Source: an uncultured Bacteroidales bacterium (GTDB lineage: Bacteria; Bacteroidota; Bacteroidia; Bacteroidales; Paludibacteraceae). From it: 64,000 nt of DNA. The stretch lies in assembly GCA_902783545.1 (NCBI GenBank), contig CACZRD010000054.1, positions 2,171 to 66,170 of the forward strand, in the 5' to 3' direction. The position numbers were made by a program, and so were the translations under genes. Under the pieces are notes generated by a model. The model was not told the DNA's origin. It did no database searches and saw only the letters and a list, made by a program, of their open reading frames with translations. Below are positions 34,781-60,037 of the stretch, piece by piece (the first letter of the stretch is position 1; every line of letters begins with the position of its first letter).

Positions 34781-36625
34781 TCAGCGGTCAGTTATCTGCC
34801 TGCCTAAGGCATCGTAGGTCTTATTGTCACGCACGATGAGCAGTTGTCCGTTGCGCAGCACCTTTGTACTTTGTCCCTTGTCACTTTGCACCTTCCCCAC
34901 ATCGCTGCTTCCCCGCTTCGTACAGGTCAGGGTGATGATCATACATGCCTGCTTGCCTGCGAGCCGAAACGCCAGTTCATCGGTCACGGGATGCGCCGTG
35001 TGGTCGATGTCGTGCGTCACCCACTGTGCATTACCGTTTTTGGTTCGCGGGAAGAAATAGTCCTCGGCAGTGTAGGTCGTATTGTTCCACATCTGCACAT
35101 ACGCGTCCGGTTCATCCCAGTTGTCATACCCGAACAGTTTGGCTTTGGTTACCTGCAGGTCTTGCGGGATATGGATCGTATAAGTCACATCGGCGTTATA
35201 GCGTATGCTGTTCGCCTTAGCGGTCGAATACCCTACTCCGCCATCGTTGGTGATGGTGAACGCATTGTCGAATGTATAGGTCTGATCGCCATTCTTCGAC
35301 ACACTACTCTCGGTTGACAGAATATACGTACCGTCGTCGTGTATTCCGTACTTGACTTTCCACGCCGGGTACTCGGTCTCTATCACGCGCTGACACCACG
35401 AACCGATATACTGGTAGCCGACGCGGTTTCCACGCAGTAGTGAGGTGTAATACGGACAGCCCTTTTCGTCAATCGCTTTCGGTGTATCCTCGTAGTTGTA
35501 CAGGAACCGGTAGTACATGTGCTTAATCGAATCATTGTAGATGGCATAGACCGGTTCGTATGCCTTGTCGGGATTGTAGTTGGCACGTGCCAGTTCTTCC
35601 TCAGTATAGGTGTACGTAGTGCCGTTGTATGTATAACTGCGTGTTTTGCCACGGTTCTTCAGTTTATTGAAAAACTTCTCATATACCTGCGCACCTGTGT
35701 TTCCTCCTATCTGGATGAACCGTCCCCACAGATGCGTACCTTTCTGCTCCACAATACGCCGGTCTTTCTGTTGGTCGGCATTGGTGTAGTCTTCCACGGC
35801 GTGGTCGGCTATCTTATGCTCGTCCAGCCACGTAACGGCGGCTGTGATACGTGTCTTGAGCTCATCCGAGGGGTTGTCGAGCGACATAAGGAACGACAGC
35901 AGGTTAGCCGATTCGTACCCGCTGACTGACGGCAACTCTTGCGGACGCCCTTCGGTAGGCAGGTACGGCGCAACGGTATCGTGCTGGGCACACCAAGCGG
36001 CATACGTACCGTCGATGATGATCTGGCAGTCCAGGATGCATTGCACACCGCGGTCGAAAGCAGCCTGACAAGCTTCACGCGTAGCGGCATCGGTGATGCC
36101 GGCAAAGTCGCCCGTGTTGGTATATATATCCCTGAGCAACTTCAGCACATTGACCACCAGATCGTCGTTGAAGGTGACGTAATCCTGATAGCCGTTATCG
36201 TTGCTCAGCGGCAGGTACTGACTCCATCCGCCGCAGCCCTTCTGTGCCACGCGAATCATCTGCAATCCGCGCAAGAACGCCTGGCGGCAGTCTTCGTTGC
36301 CTGTAGCTTTCCACACCCGCGCCAGATAACGCATCTCTTGGGTGGTTGCCATGTTGTCCAGACAGGAACGACCGCTCTTCTCATTGATCAGGCGTTGGTA
36401 CTCTGACTGCGAGAGCTTATGCAGCTGGTCATTCTTCATCCAGCCGCCGTTGGTCTTCTGCACGGCTATCACGATGGCGGCAATATCCAGTGCCTCCTGC
36501 GATCCGTACCACTCAGCCGACATCCCGCCCAAGCAGACTTTCTGCCAAGTCAGGTCACTCACACCCGCTGTCAGTCCCCCACAGCCGGAAAGAATAAGCA
36601 GTATGATAAACAATACCTTTTTCAT
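34781..36625 (-). CDS. PL10-like pectate lyase with a C-terminal beta-sandwich module and the short shared tail
   Basis: 614 aa with a possible lipobox (LSGCGG). The N-terminal half resembles the alpha/alpha-barrel pectic-acid lyases (QKTNGGWMKND, DNMATTQEMRYLA, GCGGWSQY, TFNDD). The tail is KVLRNGQLLIVRDNKTYDALGRQITDR. Confidence 0.7.
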   Translation of the reverse strand: MKKVLFIILLILSGCGGLTAGVSDLTWQKVCLGGMSAEWYGSQEALDIAAIVIAVQKTNGGWMKNDQLHKLSQSEYQRLINEKSGRSCLDNMATTQEMRYLARVWKATGNEDCRQAFLRGLQMIRVAQKGCGGWSQYLPLSNDNGYQDYVTFNDDLVVNVLKLLRDIYTNTGDFAGITDAATREACQAAFDRGVQCILDCQIIIDGTYAAWCAQHDTVAPYLPTEGRPQELPSVSGYESANLLSFLMSLDNPSDELKTRITAAVTWLDEHKIADHAVEDYTNADQQKDRRIVEQKGTHLWGRFIQIGGNTGAQVYEKFFNKLKNRGKTRSYTYNGTTYTYTEEELARANYNPDKAYEPVYAIYNDSIKHMYYRFLYNYEDTPKAIDEKGCPYYTSLLRGNRVGYQYIGSWCQRVIETEYPAWKVKYGIHDDGTYILSTESSVSKNGDQTYTFDNAFTITNDGGVGYSTAKANSIRYNADVTYTIHIPQDLQVTKAKLFGYDNWDEPDAYVQMWNNTTYTAEDYFFPRTKNGNAQWVTHDIDHTAHPVTDELAFRLAGKQACMIITLTCTKRGSSDVGKVQSDKGQSTKVLRNGQLLIVRDNKTYDALGRQITDR

Positions 36626-36635
36626 ATCTCATTAT

Positions 36636-38621
36636 TTATTGCAATCTTGCCCCAAGTATGGTATATTCCACTCCATCGCGGATGATTACCATCTGCCCGT
36701 TGCGGATCATCTTATCAGCCAAACTTGGCTGATTGTCCTGTTGGAGCTCCACTTCCGTCGGCGTACCCTCGTCTGCCAGCGTTACCACGGCGATGAAACA
36801 CACCTGCTTGTCACTGAACGTGAACGTAAACTCATTGGCGGGTTTTGCCAATGTCTTGGTAATATGCGTCGGGTTAGCATAATCCTTGATGGACGACACC
36901 TCATCCGAACAGCTTGTCCCGTTAAACTCCGACAGTTTGCCAGGACCTGCATCATTATTGGTTGTGGCATAGAACTCCACTTTCGCTGCCTTCTGTCCTG
37001 CCGCCAGCTTAAGCGTATTCTGTGCTCCGTTGGAGTTCTTGAGCGTCATATAACTCGTGCCCTCGTACTTGATGCTGCCATTGCCGTTGCTCCAGTTCTT
37101 GTCGGCATTGCCGGTGATGGTAAGTTTCCAATTGTCGACTACCGTGATGGTATTTGCAGCCGTCGTGCCGTCTTCCCAATACACCACCTGCTTGACTGCC
37201 GGCACGCTGCTATTCCATGTATAGCTGCCTTTGTATTGCTCCTCTATCAGCGCACCGGGCAGTTCAGTCTCCGTCGAAGTCACATTGCCCACCTTGATGG
37301 AGCAGTCCTTGAATTGGATACCCGAGCAGAAGTTCAGCTTCAGACCTTTGGTGTGCTCGATGTGCACATTATCGAAGGTCACATCCTTCACGTAACTCTC
37401 CGGACGGCCGTAGATGAAGATCCCGTAGCCGTTCTTGCCGCTGGTCGTAGTACTCTTGCATCCGCTGATGGTCACGTCCTTAAGGGTGATGTCATGGAAT
37501 CGCGGAGTCTTATCTACCAGCGCCGGCGCATGGGCGTCTATCCATGTGGGGTTAGGCAACGAGTCGTACCAGCAGGTGATCGAGATTGGGCTGAGCACAT
37601 TCGTCATCGTACAGTTACGGAATACAATATTATATACATCGCCGCTGCGGTCGTTGTTGGACTTGAGGCGGAAACCGGCATCCGTACCGTTCATCGTCAG
37701 ATCTTCGTAGATGATATCGTGCATGTTCGTTGTGTAGCTGCCAAACGATGCGCCGTGACCTGCCAGCATCGTGCAATTCCATACATGTACATATTGTGCA
37801 TTCTCGTCACAAACAACATTATCGTCACCGGTATCTATCTCGCAGTCATAGATGTTGACGTACTGCGTCCATATGGGGAATCCGTCGGTGTTGTGCGAGG
37901 GGTCGTCCACACCGTGCGAGGCGGGGTTCTTGACGGTTATAGCGTGTGCCGTTGCGTTGGCTCCTTTACCGCTACGACCGATGGTGATATTCGTGTTCGG
38001 GGCGTTCTGGATGCGGAAGTTGCGGAACAAGTACCGCTCGCCCTGCCAGAATCGGATCAGCGCACTGCGGGTGGTGCTCTTCTTCGCGACTTTGGCGTCT
38101 TCCACCTGATCCCACCAGGGTGCACCTTGTCCGTCTATGATCGACGTCGTGCGGCTCTCGCCCTCAATCACGACATCCGATGCTTTGTTCTTACCCGTGA
38201 TGAACGGCGACTCCATCTTATAGTAGCCGTTGCCGTCCTTCGGGAAAGTCGTCATAGCCAGCATCTTCAGTGTGGCGTTCTCACTCAGGTGCAATATCGT
38301 CTTCGAACCAACTGTCAGACAACCGCTCAGGAACGTACCGGCAGGTATAACCACCATACCTCCACCGGCATTAGCCGCAGCGTCGAGCGCGGCTTGGATA
38401 GCCGTCGTGTTGTCCGCAGCTTCAGTCTTTGCGCCGTACGCGGTGATCACAAACGTATTCGTCTCGGTGATGGTAGGCAGACCGGTGGGCAGTTGGACGG
38501 CTGTCCAGCCCGCGGGAGTGTTCTTGTCCGCCGCCTCGGCATCCATCGAGAACGGGATTACCGCTGCCATCGCTTGCATGCTCAATAGGGCGATTGCCAA
38601 AAGAAGTGTTGCTTTCTTCAT
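36636..38621 (-). CDS. GH28-type polygalacturonase with a C-terminal beta-sandwich module and the short shared tail
   Basis: 661 aa with an SPI signal and motifs HNTDGFP, GDDNVVCDE, GHGASFGSY and RLKSNNDRSG. The tail is KMIRNGQMVIIRDGVEYTILGARLQ. Confidence 0.78.
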   Translation of the reverse strand: MKKATLLLAIALLSMQAMAAVIPFSMDAEAADKNTPAGWTAVQLPTGLPTITETNTFVITAYGAKTEAADNTTAIQAALDAAANAGGGMVVIPAGTFLSGCLTVGSKTILHLSENATLKMLAMTTFPKDGNGYYKMESPFITGKNKASDVVIEGESRTTSIIDGQGAPWWDQVEDAKVAKKSTTRSALIRFWQGERYLFRNFRIQNAPNTNITIGRSGKGANATAHAITVKNPASHGVDDPSHNTDGFPIWTQYVNIYDCEIDTGDDNVVCDENAQYVHVWNCTMLAGHGASFGSYTTNMHDIIYEDLTMNGTDAGFRLKSNNDRSGDVYNIVFRNCTMTNVLSPISITCWYDSLPNPTWIDAHAPALVDKTPRFHDITLKDVTISGCKSTTTSGKNGYGIFIYGRPESYVKDVTFDNVHIEHTKGLKLNFCSGIQFKDCSIKVGNVTSTETELPGALIEEQYKGSYTWNSSVPAVKQVVYWEDGTTAANTITVVDNWKLTITGNADKNWSNGNGSIKYEGTSYMTLKNSNGAQNTLKLAAGQKAAKVEFYATTNNDAGPGKLSEFNGTSCSDEVSSIKDYANPTHITKTLAKPANEFTFTFSDKQVCFIAVVTLADEGTPTEVELQQDNQPSLADKMIRNGQMVIIRDGVEYTILGARLQ

Positions 38622-38646
38622 ATCGCTGTTTGTTCAATTATCAGAT

Positions 38647-40743
38647 TTAATACACAACGGCTTTCCCAAATCCTCCGCGGCTGTTAGCCTGACGGATGGT
38701 CTTGCCCTTGTGTTCTGCTGTCAGTTGCGAACCTTTCACTACAGCCACAAATGCACCGTTGTCCTCAACCAGGTAAGCGGCATCGGCATCAATAGCTTTA
38801 GGGTTAGCCGTTACTTGGGCTGCAATAGATGCTGCGTCCCAGTTATCGGCACCCAGAATCACATTCTCGTAGGTATATATACCCGGGCTGTCCAGATCGA
38901 CGGGATCGGAGTCGGCTGCGTAGTTCAAGCCGTTGACGTTATGTCCGGTGATGACCGTGCCGTCCGCCCTACGGGTGTTGTATTCATGAAAGCGCACTTT
39001 GAGTCCTGCGTTCATGTGGGTGTAGCCTTGTGCGGAAGGAGCGATGAGGCAGGTGGTGTTGAGCCATGTGCCTGCCGGCGAGTGTTTCCATCCGCGACCG
39101 AGGTGCCAGCGCCCGGCTTGTGAGGCTACGCCGTCTATCGTACAGTTACTGAACACATAGCCGTAGTGCGTAGTCGGTTCGGTAGCCGGAGCGATGATCA
39201 CATCGTCGTTCTTGCGGTCGTTGTTGTACAGCAGTACGTTCTCAAACCATATATCTCCGCCGCCGCAGATATAATCCACAGTACCTTCGATCCGCCCGTC
39301 GCCAAACCATCCGCGTTGGGTGGCTGCGCCGTTGGAGTAATAGGTGTCTTGATTGCCCTGTAGGCTGACGTGCTGAAATATGCTCTTATCGCCTTGGACT
39401 TGTACGGCAATCCCCACCCCGTGCGCCATGCTGGTCGGATACGACACATCGCAGCGGATACCGAGGTCTTGCATGTAGATGTTGTCCGCCTTGAGCACCA
39501 GTGTCTCGGCGTTGTTCATACCCGAGGCGAGCGGGTGGTTGACGATCAGCACGCCGTCCATCGACTGCCCGATCAGGCTGATCTGCGCGTTGATGGGAGT
39601 GAGCGTCTCATGCCCTAAATCGTACGTACCGTCGGGCAGGAAGATATTGTCGCCGTCCTGTGCCGTTGCCAGTAGCAGTTGCAATGCAGCCCCGTCACCG
39701 GCGCTGAGCACATAGTATCCTGCCTCGTTCCGTGCAGGGATAGTTGCCACATTATATACTTTCACGCCACGCACATGTTCGCCCATACGCGGAGTAAACG
39801 TGAGCGTGGTGGCTGCACCTTCGTATCGGTAGGTCGTCGGCTCGCCGTCGGTGAGGATGTTCACGACAGCGTTTCCTGCTACTTGCACGGACAGCGTGCC
39901 GTCGCTCACGGTTAGCAGCTCATGCTCCTCGGGGTAGAAGGAGTCCTTCGCCATGTCGTAGTAGTAATAACTGCCTACCCTTGCCTGCTCGATGTCCGTA
40001 ACTTTGGCAAACAGACTGATGTCAGCCGTTACCGGTGTACCTTCATCGACCTTCCGCTCGTCACCGTTTCGCCATCCGCGGAACGCCTGTCCTGCAGGAA
40101 TAGTCACGTCGGCTACGGTGTACTTGTATCGCAGCTTGCTACCTTGCTCCACTGTGTCCCGCCCGAGCAGAGTACCGTTGCTATCGAAGTAGCGCACCAC
40201 GGGCGGCTCGGGCCTCGAGCCGTCATCGGGCAGCTCAATCGTGAAGCCTGCGATGAAGAAGTCCCCGCCGTAGCCCGACAGATAGTACGTGCCTGCCTCA
40301 TTCAGATGGATCGTCCACACCGGCATATTAACCGGCTGCTTGGCGTAGTACGGATCGGAGGTGTTGGTGCGGTCGTGCTTGCTCAGTATCAGCCCACGCT
40401 CCTCACGAAGCTCGGTGTAGAACGTCACGCTGCAGGTGTCTGTCACCCGGAACGCTAACTTGTTCTGCACATTCTTCAGCCTCAGGCAGTTCAGGTGCGA
40501 CTGCCCGTGGATCGTTGACTTGCCTTTCGACTGCGCCACCGTGTTTCCGGTCGGTGTGAACAAACGGTTATCGGCACGCAGCGTGTTGGCTGTCCATTCG
40601 CTCGTGCCGTTGTTGGTATATTCATCCGCAGTGATGGTGCAGCTGCGGCGGATGGTTATCAGGTCATCCACAGTCACACCCCACGCGCTGACGCTTATCA
40701 GCGCGCAGAGTATGATGGTAACTATGGATTGCCTGCGTAACAT
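38647..40743 (-). CDS. CE8 pectin methylesterase with an N-terminal beta-sandwich module; it lacks the shared tail
   Basis: 698 aa with CE8 motifs GNQDTYYSN, GTVDYICGGG and LGRGWKHSP. It ends ...ANSRGGFGKAVVY. Confidence 0.85.
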   Translation of the reverse strand: MLRRQSIVTIILCALISVSAWGVTVDDLITIRRSCTITADEYTNNGTSEWTANTLRADNRLFTPTGNTVAQSKGKSTIHGQSHLNCLRLKNVQNKLAFRVTDTCSVTFYTELREERGLILSKHDRTNTSDPYYAKQPVNMPVWTIHLNEAGTYYLSGYGGDFFIAGFTIELPDDGSRPEPPVVRYFDSNGTLLGRDTVEQGSKLRYKYTVADVTIPAGQAFRGWRNGDERKVDEGTPVTADISLFAKVTDIEQARVGSYYYYDMAKDSFYPEEHELLTVSDGTLSVQVAGNAVVNILTDGEPTTYRYEGAATTLTFTPRMGEHVRGVKVYNVATIPARNEAGYYVLSAGDGAALQLLLATAQDGDNIFLPDGTYDLGHETLTPINAQISLIGQSMDGVLIVNHPLASGMNNAETLVLKADNIYMQDLGIRCDVSYPTSMAHGVGIAVQVQGDKSIFQHVSLQGNQDTYYSNGAATQRGWFGDGRIEGTVDYICGGGDIWFENVLLYNNDRKNDDVIIAPATEPTTHYGYVFSNCTIDGVASQAGRWHLGRGWKHSPAGTWLNTTCLIAPSAQGYTHMNAGLKVRFHEYNTRRADGTVITGHNVNGLNYAADSDPVDLDSPGIYTYENVILGADNWDAASIAAQVTANPKAIDADAAYLVEDNGAFVAVVKGSQLTAEHKGKTIRQANSRGGFGKAVVY

Positions 40744-40756
40744 GGTTCAGATAGCT

Positions 40757-43528
40757 TTACTTGATCGTCTGTCCTATTGCGTTGTACTCAATGCCGCCGC
40801 GGATGAAGATCAGTTGTCCGTCGCGCATCACCTTCCGCACGCTGACCGCTGACTGCTGACCGCTGACCGCCTCAACAGCCGTCTCGTCTCCTATCACGAC
40901 CGCCTCACCGAATCCGCCGCGGGCGTTAGCCTTACGGACAGCTATCAGGGCGTCATCCGGGAAGATCTCCTCAGCCAGCTGTGTACCGGTCATCATCATT
41001 GCATTGCCGTTCTCCGCTTCTACCAGGTAGATTCCCTCTGCTTCGATATTTTGCAGATCGCATGCTGCCTGCTTGGCATCGTTGGCAGCGGTAGCAGCCC
41101 ACTCGCCGAGGGTGTACTCCATCGTATAAGTCGCAGCCTCATCAGCCGTCAGAACGGTCTGAATATCCTGTGTGGCGTTAGCGCTCTTGGTATCAATGAA
41201 GGTCACTACGTTGCTTGCAGGTGTGAGAACAGTGCCGTCTGCCAGATGGGTGTTGTACTCGCCGAATTGCGGCCACGCGTTCGGGTTCATCAGCTCTTTC
41301 GTCCAGCGCTCGATCTTACTGCCGTCCGTGAAGCTGAACTCACCTTCGCTATAATCGAACAAGGTGTTGAGGAAAGCCACTTTCGGCGAGTTGTTCCATG
41401 CGCGGCCGAGCGATACGACCGGGCACTCACTCATGAGCGTACAGCCCTCAAACACGTAACCTTTGTCGCTTGCCTGACCGTTATTCGCCGTCAGTGCATC
41501 GCTACCACCGCCGTCTTTCTTGCGCATCTCGGCATACAGCAGGTTGTTCTTGAAATACACACTGCCGTCACCGCAGATGAAATCGACAGCACCGTGGATC
41601 TCGCAATCCTCCATGTACCTGACAGCCCCCGGCAGGTTGCTGTAGTATGTATCTTGGTGGGACAGCAGACGTACGTTCTTGCATACGGTCTTCGTTCCCT
41701 GATCCCACAAGGCTACGGCACGACCGTTGTCGTTCTTGTAGTAATCCAGATCGTTCTGGATCGTCAGGTCTTGCAGATAGATACCGCTCACGTTCTTTGC
41801 AATGCGCAGGGTGGCTGTCTTGTCTATACTCTCGTTCTTAACGTCCGGAGCGTTCTTTATTCTCACCTCTGTCATCGACTGACCGATGATCGCTATGTTG
41901 CTCTTGCTGATGGTCGTCAGTACGGTCTCGCCCAGGTCGTACGTGCCGTTCGGCAGGAAGATCTTGTCGCCGCTCTCAGCCATCGCGAGCGTCAGGATGA
42001 ACGCTGCTGCGTCACCCGACGGCACCTCATAATAACCTGTTGTCGTATTTTTCTCCGGGAATTCATTCACATTATATACGACTACCTTGTGGATATACTG
42101 CTTGGCCGTCCAGTTGATGGTCAGCCAGCCGGCATTACCGGTATATTTAGCCGTCACCTCTGTGCCGTCCGGAGTCTCGTTCTTTACTACTGCATAGGAC
42201 GCCAGCTCTTGCTCGCTATCCATCACTTTGACATCACCCGACTCCGAATATTTGCAGAGCGTAACGACTACCACCGCGTTACCGGCTACTTGCACGCGGA
42301 TCGAACCGTTCTGACCGAAGAGCCAACCGTGATTGTTATAATAACTGCCGTCATACACCTCTACCGTCTCGTGATCCTCCGGGTAGAAGATCGGGTTGGC
42401 GAAGTCATAGGTCTGTACGCTACCTATAATCACATCCTCGATCGGCGTCACCTTGGCTTGGATCGTCGTATTGCCATTGATGATATCGCCCACTTTCGCT
42501 TTCTTGTCGTTCATGTAGAACCAGCCGCGGAACTTATCTGTTGCTGCTATAGCCGGCAGGTCTGCCTCGGTGTAAGGGATAGCCTCAAGGGTTGCACCTT
42601 CGATGGTCTCGACCTTGCCCAGCACACCACCGTTCTGGTCCTTGAACGTAACCGTGCAAGGCGTTACGTCACAAGCCTCTGCGAAGAAGTACGGCACGTA
42701 CGTGTTACCTGCCACCTCAAATGTCAGCGTACTTGCACCACCCGTGTAGGTGTACGTCACGAACTGATCGAAATGACCTGCCGTCTCGCCGCAAGCGTCT
42801 TTGTTATTCACGGTCGCATAAGCCAGTCCGTCTTTCAGGACGCTGATCGGCGTGCCGCTGTACTGGCAGGCACCGATGGTGAACTTCACCGGGCCGTCAA
42901 CAGGCACCGTGATCGTACCGCCTTGTACACCATGCTGACCATCTTTATAGGTAGTGCCTGCGATGCTTACGCCTTCAGGCAGTACGCCGCCTTCGGGGAG
43001 TAGCACTGTATAAGGGTTGTCACGGAACTCGATCTTGAAGTCCACGAACGTACGGGCTACGTTCTCCTTGAACTCGATCTTGCTCAATACTCCCTCGGAA
43101 CTTGTCTTACGCTCGATGTACACACCGGTCACCTCTGACGACAGTTCAATCGTCGCTGACCCGCCAAATTCTACATTTTCAGTGTCAGCGATCTTCTCTC
43201 CCTTGACCGGATTCTCTCCGTCAGCTTTCGTTGCGTTATATACAGAAACGGCATAAGCAGTCTGCGCTGTGCGGTTGGCGAATGTCAGTTTCAACTTACC
43301 TGCCACATTCGCTTTCTTAAAATATGCCCAACCGCCGTTGTTCAGCTTTACGCCTTTTAATCCGTTGTTCGTTCCGGCAGCGTCATTGACCTTACTGCCG
43401 TAATACAGTCCGTTGTCCGGATTAGCACTCGGAGCCTGCTCCGTGTAGTCCCACAGCAGGTCATTCGTTCCTGCCATCATGGTAAGGCTCGTCAGAGCCG
43501 CAAACATCAAAGAATAGATTTTTCTCAT
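40757..43528 (-). CDS. CE8 pectin methylesterase, multi-module, with the short shared tail
   Basis: 923 aa with CE8 motifs SHQDTYYSN, GAVDFICGDG and LGRAWNNSP. The tail is KVMRDGQLIFIRGGIEYNAIGQTIK. Confidence 0.85.
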   Translation of the reverse strand: MRKIYSLMFAALTSLTMMAGTNDLLWDYTEQAPSANPDNGLYYGSKVNDAAGTNNGLKGVKLNNGGWAYFKKANVAGKLKLTFANRTAQTAYAVSVYNATKADGENPVKGEKIADTENVEFGGSATIELSSEVTGVYIERKTSSEGVLSKIEFKENVARTFVDFKIEFRDNPYTVLLPEGGVLPEGVSIAGTTYKDGQHGVQGGTITVPVDGPVKFTIGACQYSGTPISVLKDGLAYATVNNKDACGETAGHFDQFVTYTYTGGASTLTFEVAGNTYVPYFFAEACDVTPCTVTFKDQNGGVLGKVETIEGATLEAIPYTEADLPAIAATDKFRGWFYMNDKKAKVGDIINGNTTIQAKVTPIEDVIIGSVQTYDFANPIFYPEDHETVEVYDGSYYNNHGWLFGQNGSIRVQVAGNAVVVVTLCKYSESGDVKVMDSEQELASYAVVKNETPDGTEVTAKYTGNAGWLTINWTAKQYIHKVVVYNVNEFPEKNTTTGYYEVPSGDAAAFILTLAMAESGDKIFLPNGTYDLGETVLTTISKSNIAIIGQSMTEVRIKNAPDVKNESIDKTATLRIAKNVSGIYLQDLTIQNDLDYYKNDNGRAVALWDQGTKTVCKNVRLLSHQDTYYSNLPGAVRYMEDCEIHGAVDFICGDGSVYFKNNLLYAEMRKKDGGGSDALTANNGQASDKGYVFEGCTLMSECPVVSLGRAWNNSPKVAFLNTLFDYSEGEFSFTDGSKIERWTKELMNPNAWPQFGEYNTHLADGTVLTPASNVVTFIDTKSANATQDIQTVLTADEAATYTMEYTLGEWAATAANDAKQAACDLQNIEAEGIYLVEAENGNAMMMTGTQLAEEIFPDDALIAVRKANARGGFGEAVVIGDETAVEAVSGQQSAVSVRKVMRDGQLIFIRGGIEYNAIGQTIK

Positions 43529-43582
43529 TGTATTTAGATTTTTCGGTTAGTTTGTGCGTCGGTCTTATATGTAATATAAAAA

Positions 43583-43647
43583 TCGATGCAAAGGTACAAA
43601 ATTTCGCGCACATATATGTGTAAAAATTCGTCAAATGGGTGGAATTC
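43583..43647 (-). promoter_or_regulatory. Promoter region of the 923-aa CE8 gene. This is copy A of a perfect 65-bp direct repeat containing a -7 box (TACCTTTG, 43589-43596) and the motif TTTGACGAATTTTTACAC (43618-43635).
   Basis: Identical base for base to 44528-44592. The -7 box lies about 60 nt upstream of the ATG at 43528. Confidence 0.7.
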
Positions 43648-43683
43648 CACAATACTGACAGATATTTTGCCCCATTTGCGAAC

Positions 43684-43713
43684 AAAAAAGACGGCTCACG
43701 TATGTGAACCGCC
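43684..43713 (-). terminator. Intrinsic terminator after the 235-aa gene
   Basis: The minus-strand RNA GGCGGUUCAC-AUAC-GUGAGCCGUC forms a 10-bp stem (two G-U pairs) followed by UUUUUUG. Confidence 0.7.
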
Positions 43714-43750
43714 TTGTTGTTTTAACAGCTGATCGCTGACTGCTGATCGC

Positions 43751-44458
43751 TTAACGGATCTCTGTGCCGAGAGCGTTGTACTTAACGCCGTTCTTGATGA
43801 TAACGAGTTGACCGTTCTCAATCGTCTTAACCGACTTAACGTCAGCGTTGATGTTATCAACAGCGGTGCTTGTACCTACCTCGATTTTAGAGATACGATA
43901 GCCACCGTCGAACTCCTTGATCTGAACATCACCGCCAATAGCCATGAACTCCAGCACTTTCCATACATAACCATCCTCGTCAGCACCTTCGCTACCCTTT
44001 GCCGGCAATGTGAGGTCAGTCGAAACAGCGATAGCATTCTTCGGGAATGTACCTGCTCCATCCAAGAAGTTAGCAGCTTTATCCCCCTTGGCAGCTACGG
44101 TCAGTTTGATAGCGTCACCGGCTGCGGTATTCTTAATAACCAGGATACCGTTCTTGCCACCGTACTCAAAGCATTTGCCCGGATAAATAACGAAAGCTTT
44201 GGATTTAGCACTCGAGTTCTTTGTCTGGAATACAAGGCTTGCTTCGTTCTTGATAACGGTCTCGTTTGGATCTTCGCCGCCAGGGATGTCATAGACGTAC
44301 TTACCTTTCTCTGTGTCCGATGCACTCTCGTTCAGGGTAGCCTGTGCACCCGGAGTCCATTCGTCAATAGATGTAGCAACAGCCGTGAGGTCGATAACCT
44401 TTGCGTTTACTGTCAAGGCTGCAATAGCAGCAGCTGCAAAAAGGAAAAATTTCTTCAT
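43751..44458 (-). CDS. Secreted non-catalytic beta-sandwich protein with the short shared tail
   Basis: The start is set at MKKFFLFAAAAIAALTVNAKV (ATG 44458), because the -7 box at 44534-44541 lies inside the longer ORF-track version. The tail is KTIENGQLVIIKNGVKYNALGTEIR. The gene has its own promoter and terminator. Confidence 0.75.
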   Translation of the reverse strand: MKKFFLFAAAAIAALTVNAKVIDLTAVATSIDEWTPGAQATLNESASDTEKGKYVYDIPGGEDPNETVIKNEASLVFQTKNSSAKSKAFVIYPGKCFEYGGKNGILVIKNTAAGDAIKLTVAAKGDKAANFLDGAGTFPKNAIAVSTDLTLPAKGSEGADEDGYVWKVLEFMAIGGDVQIKEFDGGYRISKIEVGTSTAVDNINADVKSVKTIENGQLVIIKNGVKYNALGTEIR

Positions 44459-44527
44459 GATTTTGACTTGTTTTGTGAGCCTTCCGGCTCGGTTAATGAA
44501 TATAGCTTGTTTGCTTGGTTGCAAAAT

Positions 44528-44592
44528 TCGATGCAAAGGTACAAAATTTCGCGCACATATATGTGTAAAAATTCGTCAAATGGGTGGAATTC
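44528..44592 (-). promoter_or_regulatory. Promoter region of the 235-aa gene. This is copy B of the perfect 65-bp repeat (-7 box 44534-44541; TTTGACGAATTTTTACAC at 44563-44580).
   Basis: Identical to 43583-43647. Weaker similarity continues about 40 bp further upstream. Confidence 0.7.
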
Positions 44593-44756
44593 TACACCAT
44601 TGGCAAATATTTAGTCCCTAATTGCCCAACTATCAGCTATCGGCTATCGGTTATTACCTATCGCCAATCGACTATTTTTATACTCTTCAGTTAGTCGATG
44701 ACCATTGTGTTCTTAGTAGGAACACAGCAGGGTTATGTCTGCTTATAGTCAGCACT

Positions 44757-44816
44757 CGTTGTCGTGTTGTTGCCGTGTCGTTGCCGTGTCGTTGCCGTCT
44801 TTTTGCCGTGTTTTGC
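44757..44816. repeat. Approximately 11-bp-period tandem repeat (GTCGTTGCCGT-like units)
   Basis: Read directly: ...gttgttgccgtgtcgttgccgtgtcgttgccgtctttttgccgtgttttgc. Confidence 0.8.
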
Positions 44817-44865
44817 ATGTGAAAGGATGATGATTGTACCGAGGAACGCCTTTGGACGCATAGGT

Positions 44866-44892
44866 CAAAAAAAGCAGCCCAAGCGGGCTGCT
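44866..44892 (-). terminator. Intrinsic terminator ending the PL1-giant-CE12-439aa transcription unit
   Basis: A perfect 8-bp stem (AGCAGCCC / GGGCTGCT), a 4-nt loop, and a run of 7 U on the minus-strand RNA. Confidence 0.8.
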
Positions 44893-44898
44893 TTTGAT

Positions 44899-44968
44899 GT
44901 TAAGCTGTTAAACGGTTTAGCCGTTAGGCGGTTAAGCTGTTAGGCGGTTAAGCCGTTAAACTGTTAAC
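44899..44968. repeat. 8-bp-period degenerate array (GTTAAGCT/GTTAGGCG/GTTAAGCC...) abutting the stop of the 439-aa gene
   Basis: Read directly; about 8 units. Confidence 0.85.
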
Positions 44969-46283
44969 GAACCTCTACGCCCTGCGCGTTGTAGGTCTTG
45001 CCGTTCAGCTCGATGATCACTTGCCCGTTCACGATGCGCTTGGCAGCCTTGGTGGCAACAGCGGTATTCTCGATTGCGGTCGGAGCCGGCGAATCCGGCA
45101 GGGTGACCTCAGCGATCGGTTCGTTGATCATGATCTGCTTGATCACAACAGTCTTGTCGCTTGTCGTGGTGAGCTTCATGTAGCAGTCATAAGGTACGTT
45201 GGTGATCTCCAGCTTTCCAGCCACCTGAGTCCACTGGTCAGGCGTAATGGTCGCCTCTTCGCCGTTGGCGCTGACGATGACATTATCGCCTACGAATCCG
45301 AGTTTCAAGCGGATGGACGATCCTTGCTTGATCCACAATCCCACGAAAGCACCTGCTTTCTTGAGTTTCAAGCCCAAGTACGGTTCGTTACGAGCGGTCT
45401 TCTCATCGTTGAGCGAGTCGAGTTCGTTGATGTTCTCAAAATCAATATGAGCCGCTTGAAGCACTGCTTGGAAAGCCTGATTGTCCTTGCCGTTATCCAG
45501 TACCCACTGCTCGATGTTCACCGATGCACCGTACTCATAGTTCGTATCGAAGGTAGCGGAATAAGCGATAGTAACCTCTTTGGTCAATGCGCCGATAGTG
45601 AGGCTGACCTTGGTCGAACCGGCTTCAACGTCTGCTGTCGGAGCGAATCGGATTACCACCTTGGCATTGAGCTTGCCGTCCTCGCCTACCGTTACGCTTG
45701 CCGGATTAACGTACAGACCTGACAAATTAGGCACGACCAACGTATAGTTGCCGGCAGCCAGGTTCTTGCCGCTGAAGGTAACCTCAGCCTTCGGAGCCGG
45801 ATTAGCCGCAACAGCGTTGAGCTCAACGGACTCTTTATCTACGTTAAGTACGGGATCAGAAGTAATCTCCTCGTAGGTATATCCAAAGGTCTTCACTTTG
45901 AAGTCGTCTTCTGTGTAGAAATGCAGATACGGCTTGTTGTCATCACGTACCATGACGTCGGAAGAAGTGAAGCCAATCGTTGCGCCCTCTTTAGACATTA
46001 CCATCGCACGGCTTTCGTCTTTCACAGCGCCGCCGTTCTTATAGATATACAAGAAACGTGCTGCCTGATTGTCACTTGCCACAACGGTAAACGTACCCTC
46101 TACGTTTTCCGAAGGTAACTCCACATAAACGTGGGCTTTCTTGATGGCTTTCTTGTTCAAGTCTGCCGTAATGTACGAATTGCCGGTCTTTGTCATGTCG
46201 GACAAAGCGACTACAAAATCATCTGCTGCAAACATTGTCACTGCGAACAATGTTGCTGCGAAAAGGGAAAATAATTTTTGCAT
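44964..46283 (-). CDS. Secreted non-catalytic multi-module protein (beta-sandwich and Ig-like modules) with the short shared tail
   Basis: 439 aa with an SPI signal (LFAVTMFAADD) and no recognisable catalytic motif. The tail is KRIVNGQVIIELNGKTYNAQGVEVR. Confidence 0.75.
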   Translation of the reverse strand: MQKLFSLFAATLFAVTMFAADDFVVALSDMTKTGNSYITADLNKKAIKKAHVYVELPSENVEGTFTVVASDNQAARFLYIYKNGGAVKDESRAMVMSKEGATIGFTSSDVMVRDDNKPYLHFYTEDDFKVKTFGYTYEEITSDPVLNVDKESVELNAVAANPAPKAEVTFSGKNLAAGNYTLVVPNLSGLYVNPASVTVGEDGKLNAKVVIRFAPTADVEAGSTKVSLTIGALTKEVTIAYSATFDTNYEYGASVNIEQWVLDNGKDNQAFQAVLQAAHIDFENINELDSLNDEKTARNEPYLGLKLKKAGAFVGLWIKQGSSIRLKLGFVGDNVIVSANGEEATITPDQWTQVAGKLEITNVPYDCYMKLTTTSDKTVVIKQIMINEPIAEVTLPDSPAPTAIENTAVATKAAKRIVNGQVIIELNGKTYNAQGVEVR

Positions 46284-46363
46284 GATTTAAATAAATTTAG
46301 TTAATAATAGTGTTATCTTGAGATTACCTCATGTATTCTTTACTCCTTCACTCCTCTACTCCT

Positions 46364-47743
46364 TTACTCTTTCACTCCTTCCACCCTCACATTACTCAAG
46401 TAGATATACTTGCCGGAGCGCGGGGTTGCTTCGTCGTTGAGCCATGGCAGGATGCGGATATGCAACGTCTGTCCGGCAGGAACAGTGAGATGCGTAGGCA
46501 CAATCTTCACCGTTATCGGGGTGCGTTGCGGCATAGCAACCTTCTCGTAGAACGTGTGCACATCGGTGAAATTCTCGCCGAAACCCGTGTTGATGTGGCA
46601 ACTCATCGTTGACGTGCCTACTGCCGCCAGATCCATCATGATGCCGGCGATGCGCAGGGCAGAATCCGCGGGGGCGGTGACAGCCAGGTCGATATAGCGC
46701 ACGGCATTCTCATCGATCTCGTCAGCCGGCCACGGGGTCTTCGTCTTGCCGTTGTCGGAGTTGTGGAACCGCTGCATGCCGCCCTTGGTATCAGCGCAGA
46801 GGTTGCGCGTGGAGAGTTGATAGTTGAAAGCTGAAAGTTGAAAGTTCTCGGCTCTTGACTCTTGGCTCTCAACTCTTGACTCTTGGCTAATCTCCGGCAG
46901 CTCTGCCGGAATAGTGATATACTCCGCGAGAATTCCTGCCTCCTTGAGCAGCTCGGCTGCAAGGCGGGCAATCATCTTCGCTCCTAATTCCGAGGTGTGG
47001 GTCTTATCGCCCTGGCAGAACAGATTCGCCGTGCAGTACGCATCGCCGTATTGCAGGTACAGGTCATGCGTAGCAGTAGTCAGGTCGATATAGGGCACAT
47101 CCATCTGAGCCGCCACCTGGCGCATCTGCCAGACATAGTCCATCGAGTGGTCGTCGGCAGGAACGGACTGATTCTCCAGCAGCACCCCACCCTCTATCTT
47201 ATTGAACTTATCACCCAGATCGTGCTGACCATTACGGCGCAAGGTAACGGAGTCCACAAAGTACTTGCGGCATATAGGTCCTACTAACACGGGCGTACAC
47301 CCGAGCGCGCGTACCTCATCTATAAAACGGATGAGGTTAGCTTTGTAGGTCGTGTTCGGGCACGTGCCGCGCAGGTCGGTGAGAGCAGGCTGACCATTGG
47401 CTACGAGGTAGTCGTTGTATTCGAGGACATCCACGCCGTTGCATTTCTCGTCGTTGTGCGCAAACTGTATGAGCACGTAGTCACCGACGCTCATCTGCGT
47501 CTTCACTGACGGCCAGAGATTAGGCTGCTCGTAGAACGTACGCGTCGATGCGCCCGACTTGCCGCGGTTGTTGACAGTCACATAGGTCGAGTCGAAGAAC
47601 AGACCGAGGTACGTCCCCCACCCGCGTTTGTCCGTGGCGGAAGGTTTGTAGTCCGACATCGTGCTGTCGCCTATAGTGTGTACCTTGACGGCGCTCACCG
47701 GCAGACACAGCACCGCTGCCAATATGGTAAGGACTTTTTTCAT
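46364..47743 (-). CDS. CE12/SGNH rhamnogalacturonan acetylesterase fused to a C-terminal beta-sandwich domain through a repeat-encoded linker
   Basis: 459 aa with SGNH blocks GDSTMSDY, GKSGASTRTF and GDKTHTSELGA. The linker is SQESRVESQESRAENFQLSAFNYQLST. Confidence 0.8.
   Translation of the reverse strand: MKKVLTILAAVLCLPVSAVKVHTIGDSTMSDYKPSATDKRGWGTYLGLFFDSTYVTVNNRGKSGASTRTFYEQPNLWPSVKTQMSVGDYVLIQFAHNDEKCNGVDVLEYNDYLVANGQPALTDLRGTCPNTTYKANLIRFIDEVRALGCTPVLVGPICRKYFVDSVTLRRNGQHDLGDKFNKIEGGVLLENQSVPADDHSMDYVWQMRQVAAQMDVPYIDLTTATHDLYLQYGDAYCTANLFCQGDKTHTSELGAKMIARLAAELLKEAGILAEYITIPAELPEISQESRVESQESRAENFQLSAFNYQLSTRNLCADTKGGMQRFHNSDNGKTKTPWPADEIDENAVRYIDLAVTAPADSALRIAGIMMDLAAVGTSTMSCHINTGFGENFTDVHTFYEKVAMPQRTPITVKIVPTHLTVPAGQTLHIRILPWLNDEATPRSGKYIYLSNVRVEGVKE
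46816..46888. repeat. Two adjacent short-period arrays inside the CE12 gene, encoding the inter-domain linker
   Basis: gttgatagttgaaagctgaaagttgaaagtt, followed by ctcggctcttgactcttggctctcaactcttgactcttggct. Confidence 0.8.
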
Positions 47744-47776
47744 GGTAATGGTCTTAAATTGTCTTTAATAGTTGAC

Positions 47777-48145
47777 CTAAATAACCCTTCTTCTATAAAC
47801 GACAAATAGCAACGCCATCAGTAGCAGCGGGAGAGCGGCATCGCCGAGGGGCATCGGATCGGTTCCCGGATTAGGAGGTATTATACGGCGTGGGTTACGC
47901 GGCACATCTGTCGAGGTGCTACTGCCGCTACCGCCACCGTATATCGCTTTGCCGTCCGCATTCAATGAGGGGTTGAATGAGTGGGGACTGCCGCTTGGGG
48001 TCATACAGCTTGTGGAGCAGAACGCCGCAACAGGTGCCTTGACCGGAGCGAATGGGGTAGCAGTTGTACTCCATTGCGCCATGGCTGGCAGTGCGAACAC
48101 TGCCGCCATGATGATCACAATCGTTCTATTTATTCGGTGCCTCAT
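47777..48145 (-). CDS. Small secreted Gly/Ser/Pro-rich protein with a C-terminal motif + TM helix + Arg-cluster architecture
   Basis: 122 aa with a signal peptide (AVFALPAMAQW). The C-terminus is DPMPLGDAALPLLLMALLFVVYRRRVI. Confidence 0.6.
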   Translation of the reverse strand: MRHRINRTIVIIMAAVFALPAMAQWSTTATPFAPVKAPVAAFCSTSCMTPSGSPHSFNPSLNADGKAIYGGGSGSSTSTDVPRNPRRIIPPNPGTDPMPLGDAALPLLLMALLFVVYRRRVI

Positions 48146-48170
48146 AATTCATTGTCTTTCTGCGTTCAAC

Positions 48171-51100
48171 TTATTTAACCGTCACACCTGTCACGTCGTA
48201 CATCTGACCGTTGCGGATGATGAATACGTGATCGTTGATGACAATCTTGCGGACTGCGGACTGCTGACCTCTGCCAGTTGACAGATCAATACCCGTCGCC
48301 ACATGGTGTATCGGCGTGCGGCTGATGATGAACCGTGCCACCATATCCTCATCCGAAGCCATGAACATATAACGACTCTCTGAGCTGATCAGCGTCGATG
48401 TCTGCTCACGGAGGTCATTCAGATACCACGTGTTCTCGCCGTTGTACTCGAACGTGAAGGTATAGACGTCGTCCTCTGTACCTTTGCGGAACCCGAGCAC
48501 CGTGCCTTCCCAATCCGGTACGCAGTTCACTGCCATCTCGCCATCCGGCGTGATAGCGTAGAGTTGCGGTGCATAACTCTCGCCGAACAGCTTGCGACCG
48601 TCCCAGCCGTTCTCAAAGCCTTCGGTGAAATCCTCGCGCTCCCACATGTAGAGCATATCGCCGTAACCGTCTTCCGTACGTACGAACAGTCGCATCTTAT
48701 CCGCCTCGTCTTCCGATGCACCGGCACGCTTCGGAGCTTTGTTTGGTGTTGGCGTTGTACCTGCCAAAGCCGGAGCATATACGATTCTGTTGTAGTCCAG
48801 AGTTACCGAAGCAGTGTTGCCGGTAGTGAATACCGAGAACGACTGCATGGCGGGGATTAAGTCTGTCTCCTCACAGGTTCCTACGGTAGTTGTAATATAG
48901 TTACCGGCAAAACCTTCCTCTAAATAGGATGTACTATCCGTGGATTTGAAGATATAGATCGTTGCGTCTGCGTTGACGAAGTCGGTTGTCTGCATCGCTT
49001 TGATCTTAATCGGAGCCATCCATGAGTTAGCGAGCAGGTTCTCGTTGTTACCGTTGGCAGCGCCCGAACCGCTCTCCCAGTTCAGACCCGAGCACGTGTG
49101 GTTCTCGCTGGAAACGAGTGTTCCCTGCATCCAGTACGTGTGACCTGCGTCATTACCCCACGCATCAGCCGAGAATACGCAGTAGCCCTTGAACGGAGTC
49201 ATGCCATCGCCTTCATGCATGAGCTCCCAACCAATGACTTTATTATCGTAAACGATTTTATATACCCACGAGTTGTACCAGTTGTACAGGATGTTCGTCT
49301 CGTCGTTGAACGGCGTGCCGACATACTGGGCAACCGATGTTTCATTTTTCTTACCGGTTGACTTCGTGTAGAAGTTCACGGTTGCCTTGTTCTTGCCGTC
49401 GTGGCTACCCATGACGAGTGCACCCAGTCCGGCACCCGATGTCGAATTGAAGACTATATCATTCTCGCCTGTAGCGGTATAAGTGCTGCCGTTGGTGGTC
49501 TTGCATACCGTTCTGGAAACAACGAGTTCCTTGCCAGCATCCAGAATCAGTTGACCGGTGTTGCCGCTGTGCTGGTCAAGAACAACATCTGCTGCTTTCG
49601 CGTTCGTCACGTTTACTGCAACCGGTTTCTTGATTACCGCGCGATCAGCTATCGTCGGCAGACCGGCTCCACGACCTGTTGCGCCAATCCAATTGGTTGC
49701 TGTTCCCCAATTGCCATTCGTCTTGGCATCGTACAATACCACATCCGGACAAGTGTAACGTTTAACACGAACCCAGAAGATATCGTGGTTCTGTCCAACA
49801 TTGCCATTACGCATAATGAGCACTTTGTTATTGGTATTAAAACTTGCTGCTAATGCGCTAGTCAACGGGATTTCTATATCTACTGTTTGACTTGTAGTCA
49901 AATCTGTTTTTGACCAAACGGCATTACTTGTCGTCAAATCAGTACTATAGTCCGTATTGTGAATATATATGTACGATTGTTTTGTATATATCCTATAGAC
50001 TATTGTGTCGTTTTCTTTGAACGTATAGCCATTAGCTAAACCAAATAGCAAGTATTTGCCACTTCCTGTTAATTTGTAACATCCTGCCGGATCTTTATCG
50101 TCTTTTGGGCCCAAAACCACCGTTGCAGTTGCATTGGTTTTGTCCGCTTTCGTAGCTGAAGTTAAATCAACTTTAGCAATATAATTACTACCGCAATCCA
50201 TAGTTTTTACGGTAATATTGCATGAAACTGTATTTCCGCAGTGCGTACCATCCGCATCTATGGTTGCAGTAATAGTAGTTGTACCGTGTGCAACAGCAGT
50301 TACCACACCCGTGGACTCATTCACCGTTGCCGCATCTGTGTTACTGGAGCTATACGTTACACTTCCTGTGCTACCGTCCTTATTCAAGGTCGGAGTAGCC
50401 ACAGATTCACCTACCCAAATAGTTGTGTTATCATACGTCAGCGTCGGAGTGATAGGTGTACAATCTGCACAACCGGCTACAGAGATGGTGTTAAGCATCA
50501 CTTGGTCGGTACTTGCAACACGGCGAATTGTGAAACTGCTTGTTCCTTCTATGCCGTCGCCATCAGTTACTACATAACGCTGAGATATGCTGTTATTGGA
50601 GGTACTTGAAACAACGGTGGCAGGAGACATACTATTGCCGCTGACTTTCAAGCCATTCGTATGCGACGATGAAGATGCTGTTCCATAACTACCGATAACG
50701 ATGACCGTTCCTTCCTGCAACATGCCGCCAGAAAGATTAACTGTCAGCTCGTCATTATCATTATTAAATATCAAACCTTTGGCATTACCATTCAGACCCG
50801 CGGCATCCGTTCCGGTGTAAGTCAGCGTACCGCCTGTGATAGTACCGTTAATCATGCCACCAGCCGTAATAACTGTTCCGGCAGGCTGTCCGTCCGGCAT
50901 CGTTTTCTTCGACGCATCCGATACATTGAAGCACGGACTGCCCCAGGCGGCATAGAGGGTTGTCGCAGTTGAAGGCATCGTATAGGTTGCACCCGGTTGG
51001 TACATAGTGCCCGTACCGCTGCTGTTGGTATTCCATCCAAGGAATACATATCCGCTACGCGTCGGGATAGTACTGCTCAGCGTCGTACTACCCGGAGCGA

Positions 51101-53735: not shown

Positions 53736-53806
53736 TTACTTAACCTCGCAGCCGAGGGCGTTACTGGTTGTGCCGTTGCGAGTGATGCAGTTGGCCACCG
53801 AGGGCG

Positions 53807-60015: not shown

Positions 60016-60037
60016 TTACGATTTATTCATTTACCAT

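Follow-up and report, generated by a model that had tools for sequence, protein, structure and literature searches.

A short C-terminal tail on exported proteins of Paludibacteraceae-like Bacteroidales, a candidate block-swapped sorting signal related to type IX secretion domains

Introduction

Type-A C-terminal domains (CTDs) of type IX secretion systems (T9SS), described by the models TIGR04183 and PF18962 and exemplified by RgpB (PDB 5hfs/7pq4), occupy the extreme C-terminus of Sec-exported Bacteroidota proteins with signal peptidase I (SPI)-type signal peptides, where they form a seven-strand Ig-like sandwich of 70-100 residues. Their cargo includes carbohydrate-active enzymes, proteases and adhesin-like repeat proteins, and their genes are dispersed without a dedicated neighboring partner. 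Here we compare with them a short C-terminal tail shared by six proteins that are encoded in a 64,000-nt stretch of DNA (the window) from an uncultured Bacteroidales bacterium of the Paludibacteraceae (contig CACZRD010000054.1). The tail resembles type-A CTDs in position, mode of export, type of cargo and gene dispersal, as well as in a linker T-[AGS] dipeptide that would fit the reported PorU site and in a basic residue that often lies at or near its end. It differs from them in having ~38 residues, predicted to form three short strands, in the apparently swapped order of its hairpin blocks and in matching no curated model; the profile link between the two is indirect, via a ~45-residue module referred to below as the mini-CTD.

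According to cryo-EM, PorV and SprA recognize the folded shape of type-A CTDs with its seven strands, a single conserved lysine being contacted (PMC10994853), and the PorU cleavage motif has been reported as T/E/D/N followed by G/A/S, with cleavage between the two (PMC10202324). The last 22 residues of HBP35 (motifs D and E) are reported to be enough for T9SS export of green fluorescent protein (reviewed in PMC10202324), and a very short signal is therefore mechanistically plausible. Like the tail, the HBP35 minimal signal is a C-terminal beta-hairpin of ~22-25 residues with a basic end; however, it is an experimental truncation of a full P. gingivalis CTD, whereas the tail is the natural state in thousands of proteins and has another motif order. 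Several CTD classes coexist in one organism (PMC10202324, PMC10994853). The type-B (TIGR04131/PF13585) and type-C (ChiA-like, cl41395) CTDs are, like the tail, alternative C-terminal signals found alongside type A; both need 100 or more residues (PMC10202324), and given the difference in length the tail is unlikely to belong to type C with its ~100-residue ChiA-type region. Type-B cargo genes adjoin PorP/SprF-like genes, none of which recur by the tails, and the tail matches no type-B model. CTDs are not interchangeable between species (PMC11285876), so that lineage-specific signals are to be expected.

Two further kinds of sorting can be set beside the tail. LPXTG, PEP-CTERM, GlyGly-CTERM and similar signals consist of a signature motif, a hydrophobic helix and a basic tail, in this order, whereas our profile has no hydrophobic stretch longer than ~5 residues and no NCBIfam model of this kind recurs. 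The lipoprotein surface export of Bacteroides polysaccharide utilization loci (PULs), based on a signal peptidase II-type signal and a lipoprotein export signal, serves the same purpose of placing endo-acting enzymes and glycan-binding proteins on the surface; it relies on an N-terminal lipid anchor rather than a C-terminal peptide tag, and the two are nearly mutually exclusive in tail loci. In the literature searched, we found no description of the tail, of the mini-CTD as a class or of short or permuted CTDs, and nothing on T9SS in Paludibacteraceae or RF16.

Results

Six proteins of the window share one C-terminal tail

The original prediction held that six otherwise unrelated proteins of the window end in the same short peptide. 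All six open reading frames (ORFs) are present on the minus strand and each translation ends in the tail. Profile hidden Markov models (HMMs) were built both by leaving out one tail at a time and from tails of other genomes only, in order to remove circularity; the E-values given with each protein are those of the external-only model. The PL10 pectate lyase (gene 34781-36625, passenger Pec_lyase/TIGR02474) has its tail at 34784..34879, with the core KVLRNGQLLIVRDNKTYDALGRQIT followed by two extra residues (DR); the match (E 1.1e-10) covers residues 584-612 of the 615-residue stop-to-stop segment that holds this 614-aa protein. The tail of the GH28 polygalacturonase-like protein (gene 36636-38621, passenger Glyco_hydro_28) lies at 36639..36725 (E 1.2e-12), and the linker motif and tail of the 923-aa CE8 pectinesterase (gene 40757-43528) at 40760..40885 (E 7.4e-11). 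Two smaller proteins follow, a 235-aa protein resembling a carbohydrate-binding module (CBM) (gene 43751-44458; linker motif TSTAVDNINADVKSV and tail at 43754..43873, E 1.9e-22) and a 439-aa protein of unknown fold, to which no Pfam or NCBIfam family was matched (gene 44964-46283; linker motif APTAIENTAVATKAA and tail at 44967..45086, E 5.9e-18). The sixth carrier is an 1836-aa Flg_new/Big_2 repeat protein (gene 48171-53681), whose tail KIVINDHVFIIRNGQMYDVTGVTVK (48174..48260, E 1.7e-6) is the most divergent of the six.

When a six-tail HMM was run on the six-frame translation of the window, only these six proteins scored 42.7-48.6 bits, all at the C-terminus; the next-best match was a partial relic (E 0.008) and all others had E > 1. 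The leave-one-out models recovered five of the six tails (E 1.4e-9 to 9.1e-5), the outlier being that of the 1836-aa protein (E 0.66), and the external-only model recovered all six, always C-terminally. As predicted, every one of the proteins stops 0-2 residues past the tail.

At the DNA level the six tails are 45-64% identical, their third codon positions are 28-60% identical, and the longest exact word common to them does not exceed 11 nt. Because their DNA has diverged to this extent, the tails are old and kept by selection on the peptide rather than recent copies of one another, and recent gene conversion among them is ruled out.

Anatomy of the tail

We derived the anatomy of the tail from 259 distinct sequences, a sample skewed to high scorers. 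Conservation starts abruptly ~38 residues before the end, and the conserved unit thus comprises ~38 residues; the predicted tail itself stands, and its predicted length of ~25 residues has to be revised. The preceding segment was taken in the original prediction for a low-complexity linker; in most members, however, a T-A-[IVL]-[DE]-N-[TV] motif is conserved in it (T 77%, A 76%, N 87%), with K-A-V-K following after four variable residues. T stands at linker position 9 in 77% of tails, and 93% have A, G or S at position 10. The core then reads x-[IF]-E-N-G-Q-L-V-I-I-K-N-G-V-[KR]-Y-N-A-[LQ]-G-x-x-[LVI]-[KR]. Near-invariant across unrelated passengers are the last lysine of K-A-V-K (K22) and G42 (both 100%), G27 and I31 (99%), and Q28, G35 and Y38 (96%). 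The last profile position is K in 55% and R in 37%, but is absent in 39% of tails; K or R is the terminal residue in 98 of 144 representative hits.

Certain positions of the tail covary, E25 going with K33-N34 and R25 with R33-D34 (odds ratio 6.9, p 2e-9, with shared ancestry uncontrolled). In the window, the E25 subtype ('IENGQ...IIKNG') is found on the binding-type proteins and the R25 subtype ('RNGQ...IRDG') on PL10, GH28 and CE8. The subtypes might encode different fates, e.g. released versus attached proteins.

A large family confined to the C-terminus

A degenerate-pattern scan of species-representative genomes gave at least 597 matches, 456 of them confirmed, and the best 80 loci were studied. 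By title, 28 of these belong to a 'Paludibacteraceae bacterium', 48 to uncultured Bacteroidales and two to other Bacteroidia, and two carry obviously mis-binned names; their sources are rumen, deer, pig and human gut metagenome-assembled genomes (MAGs). Nearly all tails in the 80 loci (129 of 130) end within 5 residues of the stop codon, 105 of them exactly at the stop, and 37 loci have two to four tails each. An exhaustive profile search of 1.84 billion representative proteins yielded 13,305 clusters at E ≤ 1e-3, of which 1,593 remain at E ≤ 1e-10. Of the best 150 hits, 149 have a match that runs to the C-terminus; the lone exception, the top-ranked P0137, is a false positive with Calx-like repeats. 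The terminal position proposed for the six window proteins extends to the family. A homolog search with a short tail alignment returned 16 fragments; it located the tail elsewhere and is unfit for statistics, as its candidates were picked by word density.

The tail has no match in Pfam, NCBIfam or PDB sequences. It is a very large, lineage-restricted and uncatalogued family. Two confirmed tail matches were obtained among 2.9 million viral contigs; the IMG/VR contigs L091 and L092, which are classed as viral and encode tailed proteins, may represent mis-binned bacterial DNA or prophage-borne secreted proteins.

Signal peptides and passengers of tailed proteins

An SPI-like signal peptide is found in 116 of 119 complete tail carriers. 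The signals ascribed to the six window proteins were confirmed: five are SPI-type, including those of the GH28 and the 439-aa protein, and a possible lipobox (LSGC) is present at the N-terminus of the PL10. Within the tail loci, a lipobox occurs in 3 of 115 tailed versus 102 of 186 untailed exported proteins (odds ratio 0.022, p 5e-24).

The passengers of the 144 surveyed carriers are all extracellular-type modules, none being of a cytoplasmic type. They include Big_2, CHB_HEX_C_1, Fn3_assoc, Flg_new, CBM26, X25, F5/8-C, fn3, cadherin-like and BspA-type leucine-rich repeat families, as well as Peptidase_M6, phosphoesterases, GH43, pectinases and five GH32 with a C-terminal domain like that of BT1760, a surface lipoprotein in B. 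thetaiotaomicron. There are paralog pairs inside single genomes in which one copy stops at the passenger end and the other adds linker and tail. In the window, the 698-aa CE8 paralog (38647-40743) ends '...GGFGKAVVY', and at the same point the 923-aa CE8 runs on into linker and tail.

Beyond PUL components, no recurrent family was found among the neighbors of tail genes in the 80 loci; the recurrent neighbors are SusD, GH28, PL1-like lipoproteins and GH32, and outer-membrane barrel partners are not among them. The signal-peptide, position and passenger statistics are as expected for a secretion or surface-sorting signal, alternative to lipid anchoring. The notion of a shared sorting or assembly tag is thus supported, since the tail is C-terminal, is accompanied by SPI signals and is anticorrelated with lipoprotein signals.

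Predicted structure of the tail

One AlphaFold2 model of the 235-aa carrier was built from a 39-sequence alignment. The passenger is modeled as a CBM-like beta-sandwich (residues 20-197) with a predicted local distance difference test score (pLDDT) above 90. Residues 199-205 form a linker with pLDDT < 50, which coincides with the conserved T-A-x-D-N motif. It is followed by a separate three-strand unit (210-214, 217-222 and 225-227) with pLDDT 72-80. The model therefore depicts the tail as an autonomous small beta unit behind a disordered linker and not as the last strands of a larger Ig-like CTD.

Relationship to T9SS CTDs and the mini-CTD

The curated CTD models, including TIGR04183, TIGR04131, PF18962 and other sorting-domain models, were matched neither by the six whole proteins at E ≤ 1 nor by their last 100 residues at E ≤ 10, and no recurrent sorting-domain family emerged when 79 carriers were scanned together at E ≤ 5. 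With ~38 conserved residues and three modeled strands, the tail is indeed far shorter than a canonical CTD of 70-100 residues, as had been anticipated.

The orthologs of a PL1 pectate lyase encoded in the window end in different modules: a ~55-residue CTD-like domain (6 orthologs), the tail (4), the ~45-residue mini-CTD (16, from a motif screen run on the C-termini of the orthologs themselves) or an untagged CBM-like end. Thus, the tail is interchangeable with CTD-type modules. The exchange of the C-terminal module on orthologous passengers would re-assign their location between surface and periplasm. On any protein, the mini-CTD has 37 C-terminal matches in 39 of these PL1-ortholog loci. It is likewise common on gut and rumen Bacteroidales enzymes (L093-L172).

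The mini-CTD has the consensus T-G-I-x-x-h ... V-Y-[DN]-L-x-G-[QR]-x-V ... K-G-I-Y-I-x-N-G-K-K-h-h-h-K and forms the C-terminus of two crystallized enzymes, the rumen arabinanase 4kca_A (641-682, E 4e-11) and 7jvi_A (812-842, E 6e-7). It shares with the tail an upstream T-[AG]-I linker motif, a Y-N-x-x-G-x-x-V block and a G-x-h-h-I-x-N-G-x-K block, as well as a similar length, the C-terminal position, the same passenger orthologs and the same genomes. However, blocks 2 and 3 come in the opposite order, and the mini-CTD is collinear with RgpB, whereas the tail is not. Two contigs (L102 and L105) carry a tailed PL1 together with a convergent neighboring gene with a mini-CTD; both tags are thus present in one genome. 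A 315-aa SPI protein of a tail-bearing MAG (L050:9011-9955, plus strand) ends in 'PTALETVRVLKNGVRYNLLGQEVNEYYKGIVILDGKKMLVK', the second half of the tail followed by the last hairpin of the mini-CTD, and is an apparent intermediate or bridging form.

We compared the profiles of the tail, the mini-CTD and the RgpB CTD, the sequence of the latter having been checked against PDB 7pq4/5hfs. The mini-CTD HMM weakly matches the RgpB CTD, and hhalign places the two collinearly over 31 columns, from 'IFDMNGRRV' to 'NGVY' (P 6.5e-5). In its native order, for which hhalign gives a local match of 12 columns only, the tail has two order-swapped local matches to the mini-CTD: its terminal Y-N-A-L-G block aligns onto the internal Y-x-L-x-G-Q block (P 1.4e-4) and its first hairpin onto the final hairpin (P 9e-3). 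The predicted resemblance of the tail end (Y-N-x-x-G-x-x-V) to one internal CTD motif is borne out by the profile alignment, which puts it on the Y-x-L-x-G-Q-x-V of compact type-A-like CTDs. Once its blocks are swapped, the tail aligns with the mini-CTD over 38 columns (hhalign probability 95.9%, P 5e-9). Scanning all 25 circular cut points gave a single optimum, between '...IIK' and 'NGVKYNALG...', and not one of 200 column shuffles reached even the native score. With HMMER, the mini-CTD HMM detects 30 of 259 swapped tails at E < 1e-3, compared with 1 of 259 native tails and none in each of 20 shuffles; the per-sequence medians are 6.5 bits for swapped and 1.8 bits for native tails. By this profile-level kinship, the tail looks like a block-swapped relative or derivative of the mini-CTD.

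Direct comparison of the tail with the RgpB CTD is not significant (P 0.07-0.11). A collinear match of the tail to the last 22 residues of RgpB (NGVYAVRIATEGKTYTEKVIVK) is suggestive by eye, is likewise not significant and was set aside.

Search for T9SS machinery

No T9SS component genes were found in the window, in the 10-kb flanks on each side or in ~1 Mb of tail loci from about 60 tail-bearing MAGs, where ~12 kb was sampled per genome and annotation is partial. A dedicated outer-membrane partner gene is likewise absent from the window and 10 kb on either side; the flanks hold housekeeping genes, a gene resembling those of nonribosomal peptide synthetases (NRPS) and small unknown ORFs. Among the envelope-targeted genes of the 80 loci there are no candidates resembling outer-membrane proteins, and TPR, PBP and GH families dominate among the matches listed in an NCBIfam scan of the loci, with no T9SS component there. 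Ten ambiguous envelope proteins were rejected as T9SS parts, being PCMD, WG-repeat, DUF4837, GH5, M23, TPR or unknown proteins. A large ORF considered as SprA (L067:3-4763, plus strand) is ruled out as such; its product is TamL-like and, with more than 1,587 aa, far exceeds the 747 positions of the model, and in one MAG two tail genes lie directly downstream of it.

The pectin locus and neighboring genes

The window is a large pectin utilization locus. Its enzymes comprise three GH28, two PL1, one PL10, two CE8, a GH88/105 and an SGNH esterase, and they are accompanied by SusC/SusD, two DUF4861 proteins, KduI/KduD, UxaA/B/C, KdgK, Eda, a major facilitator superfamily transporter and an AraC regulator resembling hybrid two-component systems (HTCS). 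The untailed exported proteins of the locus are lipoproteins in the case of SusD, the 515-aa GH28, a PL1-like 477-aa protein, GH88 and both DUF4861 proteins; the remaining ones have plain SPI signals. The best PDB matches of the passenger of the tailed 235-aa protein are the carbohydrate-binding domains of a putative pectate lyase (8wc1/8x8h), and this protein is probably a secreted or surface pectin-binding protein in the role of the surface glycan-binding proteins of these PULs. Its family has 1,026 clusters at 90% identity, hypothetical and mostly of 230-240 aa.

The 620-aa PL1 pectate lyase (gene 53807-55669, minus strand) is co-oriented with the tailed genes of the same locus and has a CTD-like C-terminus (53810..53974) that differs from the tail. 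Its match to TIGR04183 is sub-threshold (14.1 bits, E 0.036, cut-off 23), and it has essentially no relatives among 5.8 billion proteins and no PDB sequence match. Intended as an internal T9SS control, it now serves as a weak indicator only, and its AlphaFold2 model is unusable (pLDDT 41). Just 3' of the PL1 stop codon lies a possible out-of-frame tail relic ITRNGTTSNALGCEVK followed by a stop (53739..53786, minus strand; low confidence), which the HMM matches in part, over tail positions 10-25 (E 0.008-0.02, 10-12 bits). An older tail may have left this trace when the CTD-like module displaced it. Because no relic is seen downstream of the closest PL1 orthologs, it was not used as evidence.

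The 3' end of this PL1 gene is a recombination hot spot, with at least four kinds of C-terminal module on the same passenger across metagenomes. In a related strain (L090:17309-19378), the DNA is 96% identical over the first 1431 nt compared, which start upstream of the PL1 gene, and continues into a wholly different CBM-like C-terminus and then different downstream genes.

Several further genes were noted in and around the window. The PUL regulator (55844-58258, plus strand; 804 aa) has Reg_prop, Y_Y_Y and AraC helix-turn-helix domains, and histidine-kinase and receiver domains were not detected in it; this is a truncated HTCS-like architecture. Beside the PUL (58255-61420, minus strand), an MBOAT acyltransferase (586 aa) and a 460-aa weakly SGNH/GDSL-like protein form an AlgI/AlgJ-like O-acetylation pair. 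Some 10 kb past the right end of the window, the same contig carries the 2,394-aa NRPS-like gene (L089:1-3097), with Condensation, AMP-binding, PP-binding (twice) and terminal reductase domains. Beyond the left end, next to ribF, there are nine small ORFs (42-355 aa; L087/L088:10864-15971) without a Pfam match, and this run could be a mobile or defense islet.

Discussion

We favor, with moderate confidence, the reading that the tail is a lineage-expanded, miniaturized and block-swapped C-terminal sorting signal of the T9SS type-A CTD lineage. Tailed proteins would cross the inner membrane by Sec, using their plain SPI signal peptides. The conserved T-[AG] dipeptide of the flexible linker would suit a PorU-type sortase, and T followed by A, G or S fits the reported PorU motif, with cleavage presumably between T and A. 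The final ~25 residues would fold into the three-stranded beta unit, mostly K/R-terminated, and be presented to an outer-membrane export and attachment machinery, which we infer to be the T9SS. Tailed enzymes, carbohydrate-binding proteins and giant repeat proteins would in this way reach the cell surface or the medium, and their untailed paralogs would be periplasmic or lipid-anchored. As to its origin, the tail may have arisen from a mini-CTD whose two hairpin blocks were swapped in a circular-permutation-like rearrangement, and it may since have largely displaced conventional CTDs in Paludibacteraceae-like rumen and gut Bacteroidales.

Several points weigh against this reading. A three-strand unit such as the one modeled cannot mimic the seven-strand shape of a CTD, and direct comparison of the tail with the RgpB CTD or with any curated model gave nothing significant. 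The permutation was noticed first and tested afterwards, and the likeness of single sequences is weak, as the median of swapped tails indicates. The assignment of the mini-CTD itself as a T9SS signal relies on one moderate RgpB profile match and on motif resemblance. The sampled DNA contained no T9SS component genes, and among the passenger families listed there are no PorU- or PorZ-like tail carriers.

Given the absence of T9SS genes from the sampled DNA and the seven-strand recognition by PorV and SprA, the main rival is a dedicated route that bypasses PorV and PorU, either through a CTD-derived tag re-used for its own carrier or anchor (as type-B CTDs are with PorP/SprF-like proteins) or through a T9SS-independent outer-membrane system. 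The fold and size of the tail, incompatible with the shape read by PorV and SprA, point in this direction, and its extreme conservation across unrelated passengers implies one specific partner. The coexistence of tail and mini-CTD in the same genomes suggests two signals with separate meanings, and the covariation of tail subtypes also counts in favor of a dedicated route. However, no partner gene recurs by the tails of the 80 loci, unlike the situation of type-B cargo, and shared machinery would be the simplest explanation for the type-A-like profile kinship and for the exchange of modules on orthologous passengers. Moreover, in Bacteroidales large soluble proteins of the SPI type are not known to have any other route across the outer membrane. 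We regard a dedicated route as rather unlikely. A related proposal adds the tail to the C-terminal sorting signals of Bacteroidota as a fourth, hitherto unrecognized class, a ~38-residue unit that would be naturally circularly permuted and, instead of being treated as a type-A CTD, would be read by its own carrier or anchor or by a T9SS-independent route; it is tentative, and we rate it slightly higher.

The tail could also be a small functional module unrelated to sorting, such as a docking or oligomerization element by which enzymes and binding proteins assemble on a common receptor or SusCD-type complex at the surface, or a minimal motif that binds glycans or the cell envelope. An autonomous beta mini-domain on a flexible linker recalls the layout of dockerins and CBMs, the tail is common to co-regulated enzymes and a CBM-like binding protein of one PUL, and many loci have several clustered tails. 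Nevertheless, it is strictly terminal (129/130 and 149/150) and never internal or repeated, as sorting signals typically are and binding modules seldom are, and its near-exclusion from lipoproteins is expected of an alternative surface route; for these two reasons such a module is less likely, and we hold it to be improbable. The tail is found in pectin, fructan and starch PULs and on proteases and phosphoesterases, so that a receptor cannot be PUL-specific, and the SPI proteins would still need passage across the outer membrane. Finally, an ordinary type-A CTD of 70-100 residues might end in the tail as its last strands and have diverged beyond recognition upstream of it. Its occurrence on Bacteroidota proteins with SPI signals, its terminal basic residue and the neighboring gene with a CTD-like end agree with this. 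However, the last 100 residues match no CTD model even at the permissive threshold, and in the AlphaFold2 model the tail is preceded by a disordered linker and, before that, by the last strand of the CBM-like passenger, which is modeled with confidence. The end of the passenger is also the precise point at which untailed paralogs stop, and conservation begins abruptly ~38 residues from the C-terminus. This explanation is very improbable and was rejected.

If the tail works as a T9SS signal, it would challenge the recognition of a seven-strand shape by the translocon and PorV and narrow down the minimal recognized element. If it instead represents a fourth class, no smaller natural tag for outer-membrane export would be known in the phylum. 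So short a natural tag would also be of use for secretion engineering in Bacteroidota.

The T9SS cargo of gut and rumen Bacteroidales is usually listed by means of TIGR04183/PF18962 (e.g. PMC5831590, PMC11107044). These models do not match the tail, which is found in at least 13,305 clusters of proteins, among them pectinases, fructanases, starch-binding proteins, proteases and giant adhesin-like proteins. For Paludibacteraceae-like lineages, both the secretome and the extracellular fiber-degrading capacity are therefore probably under-called, which a dedicated tail HMM would correct. As a signal class of its own, the tail would determine which proteins of an abundant uncultured rumen and gut family are secreted or displayed at the surface.

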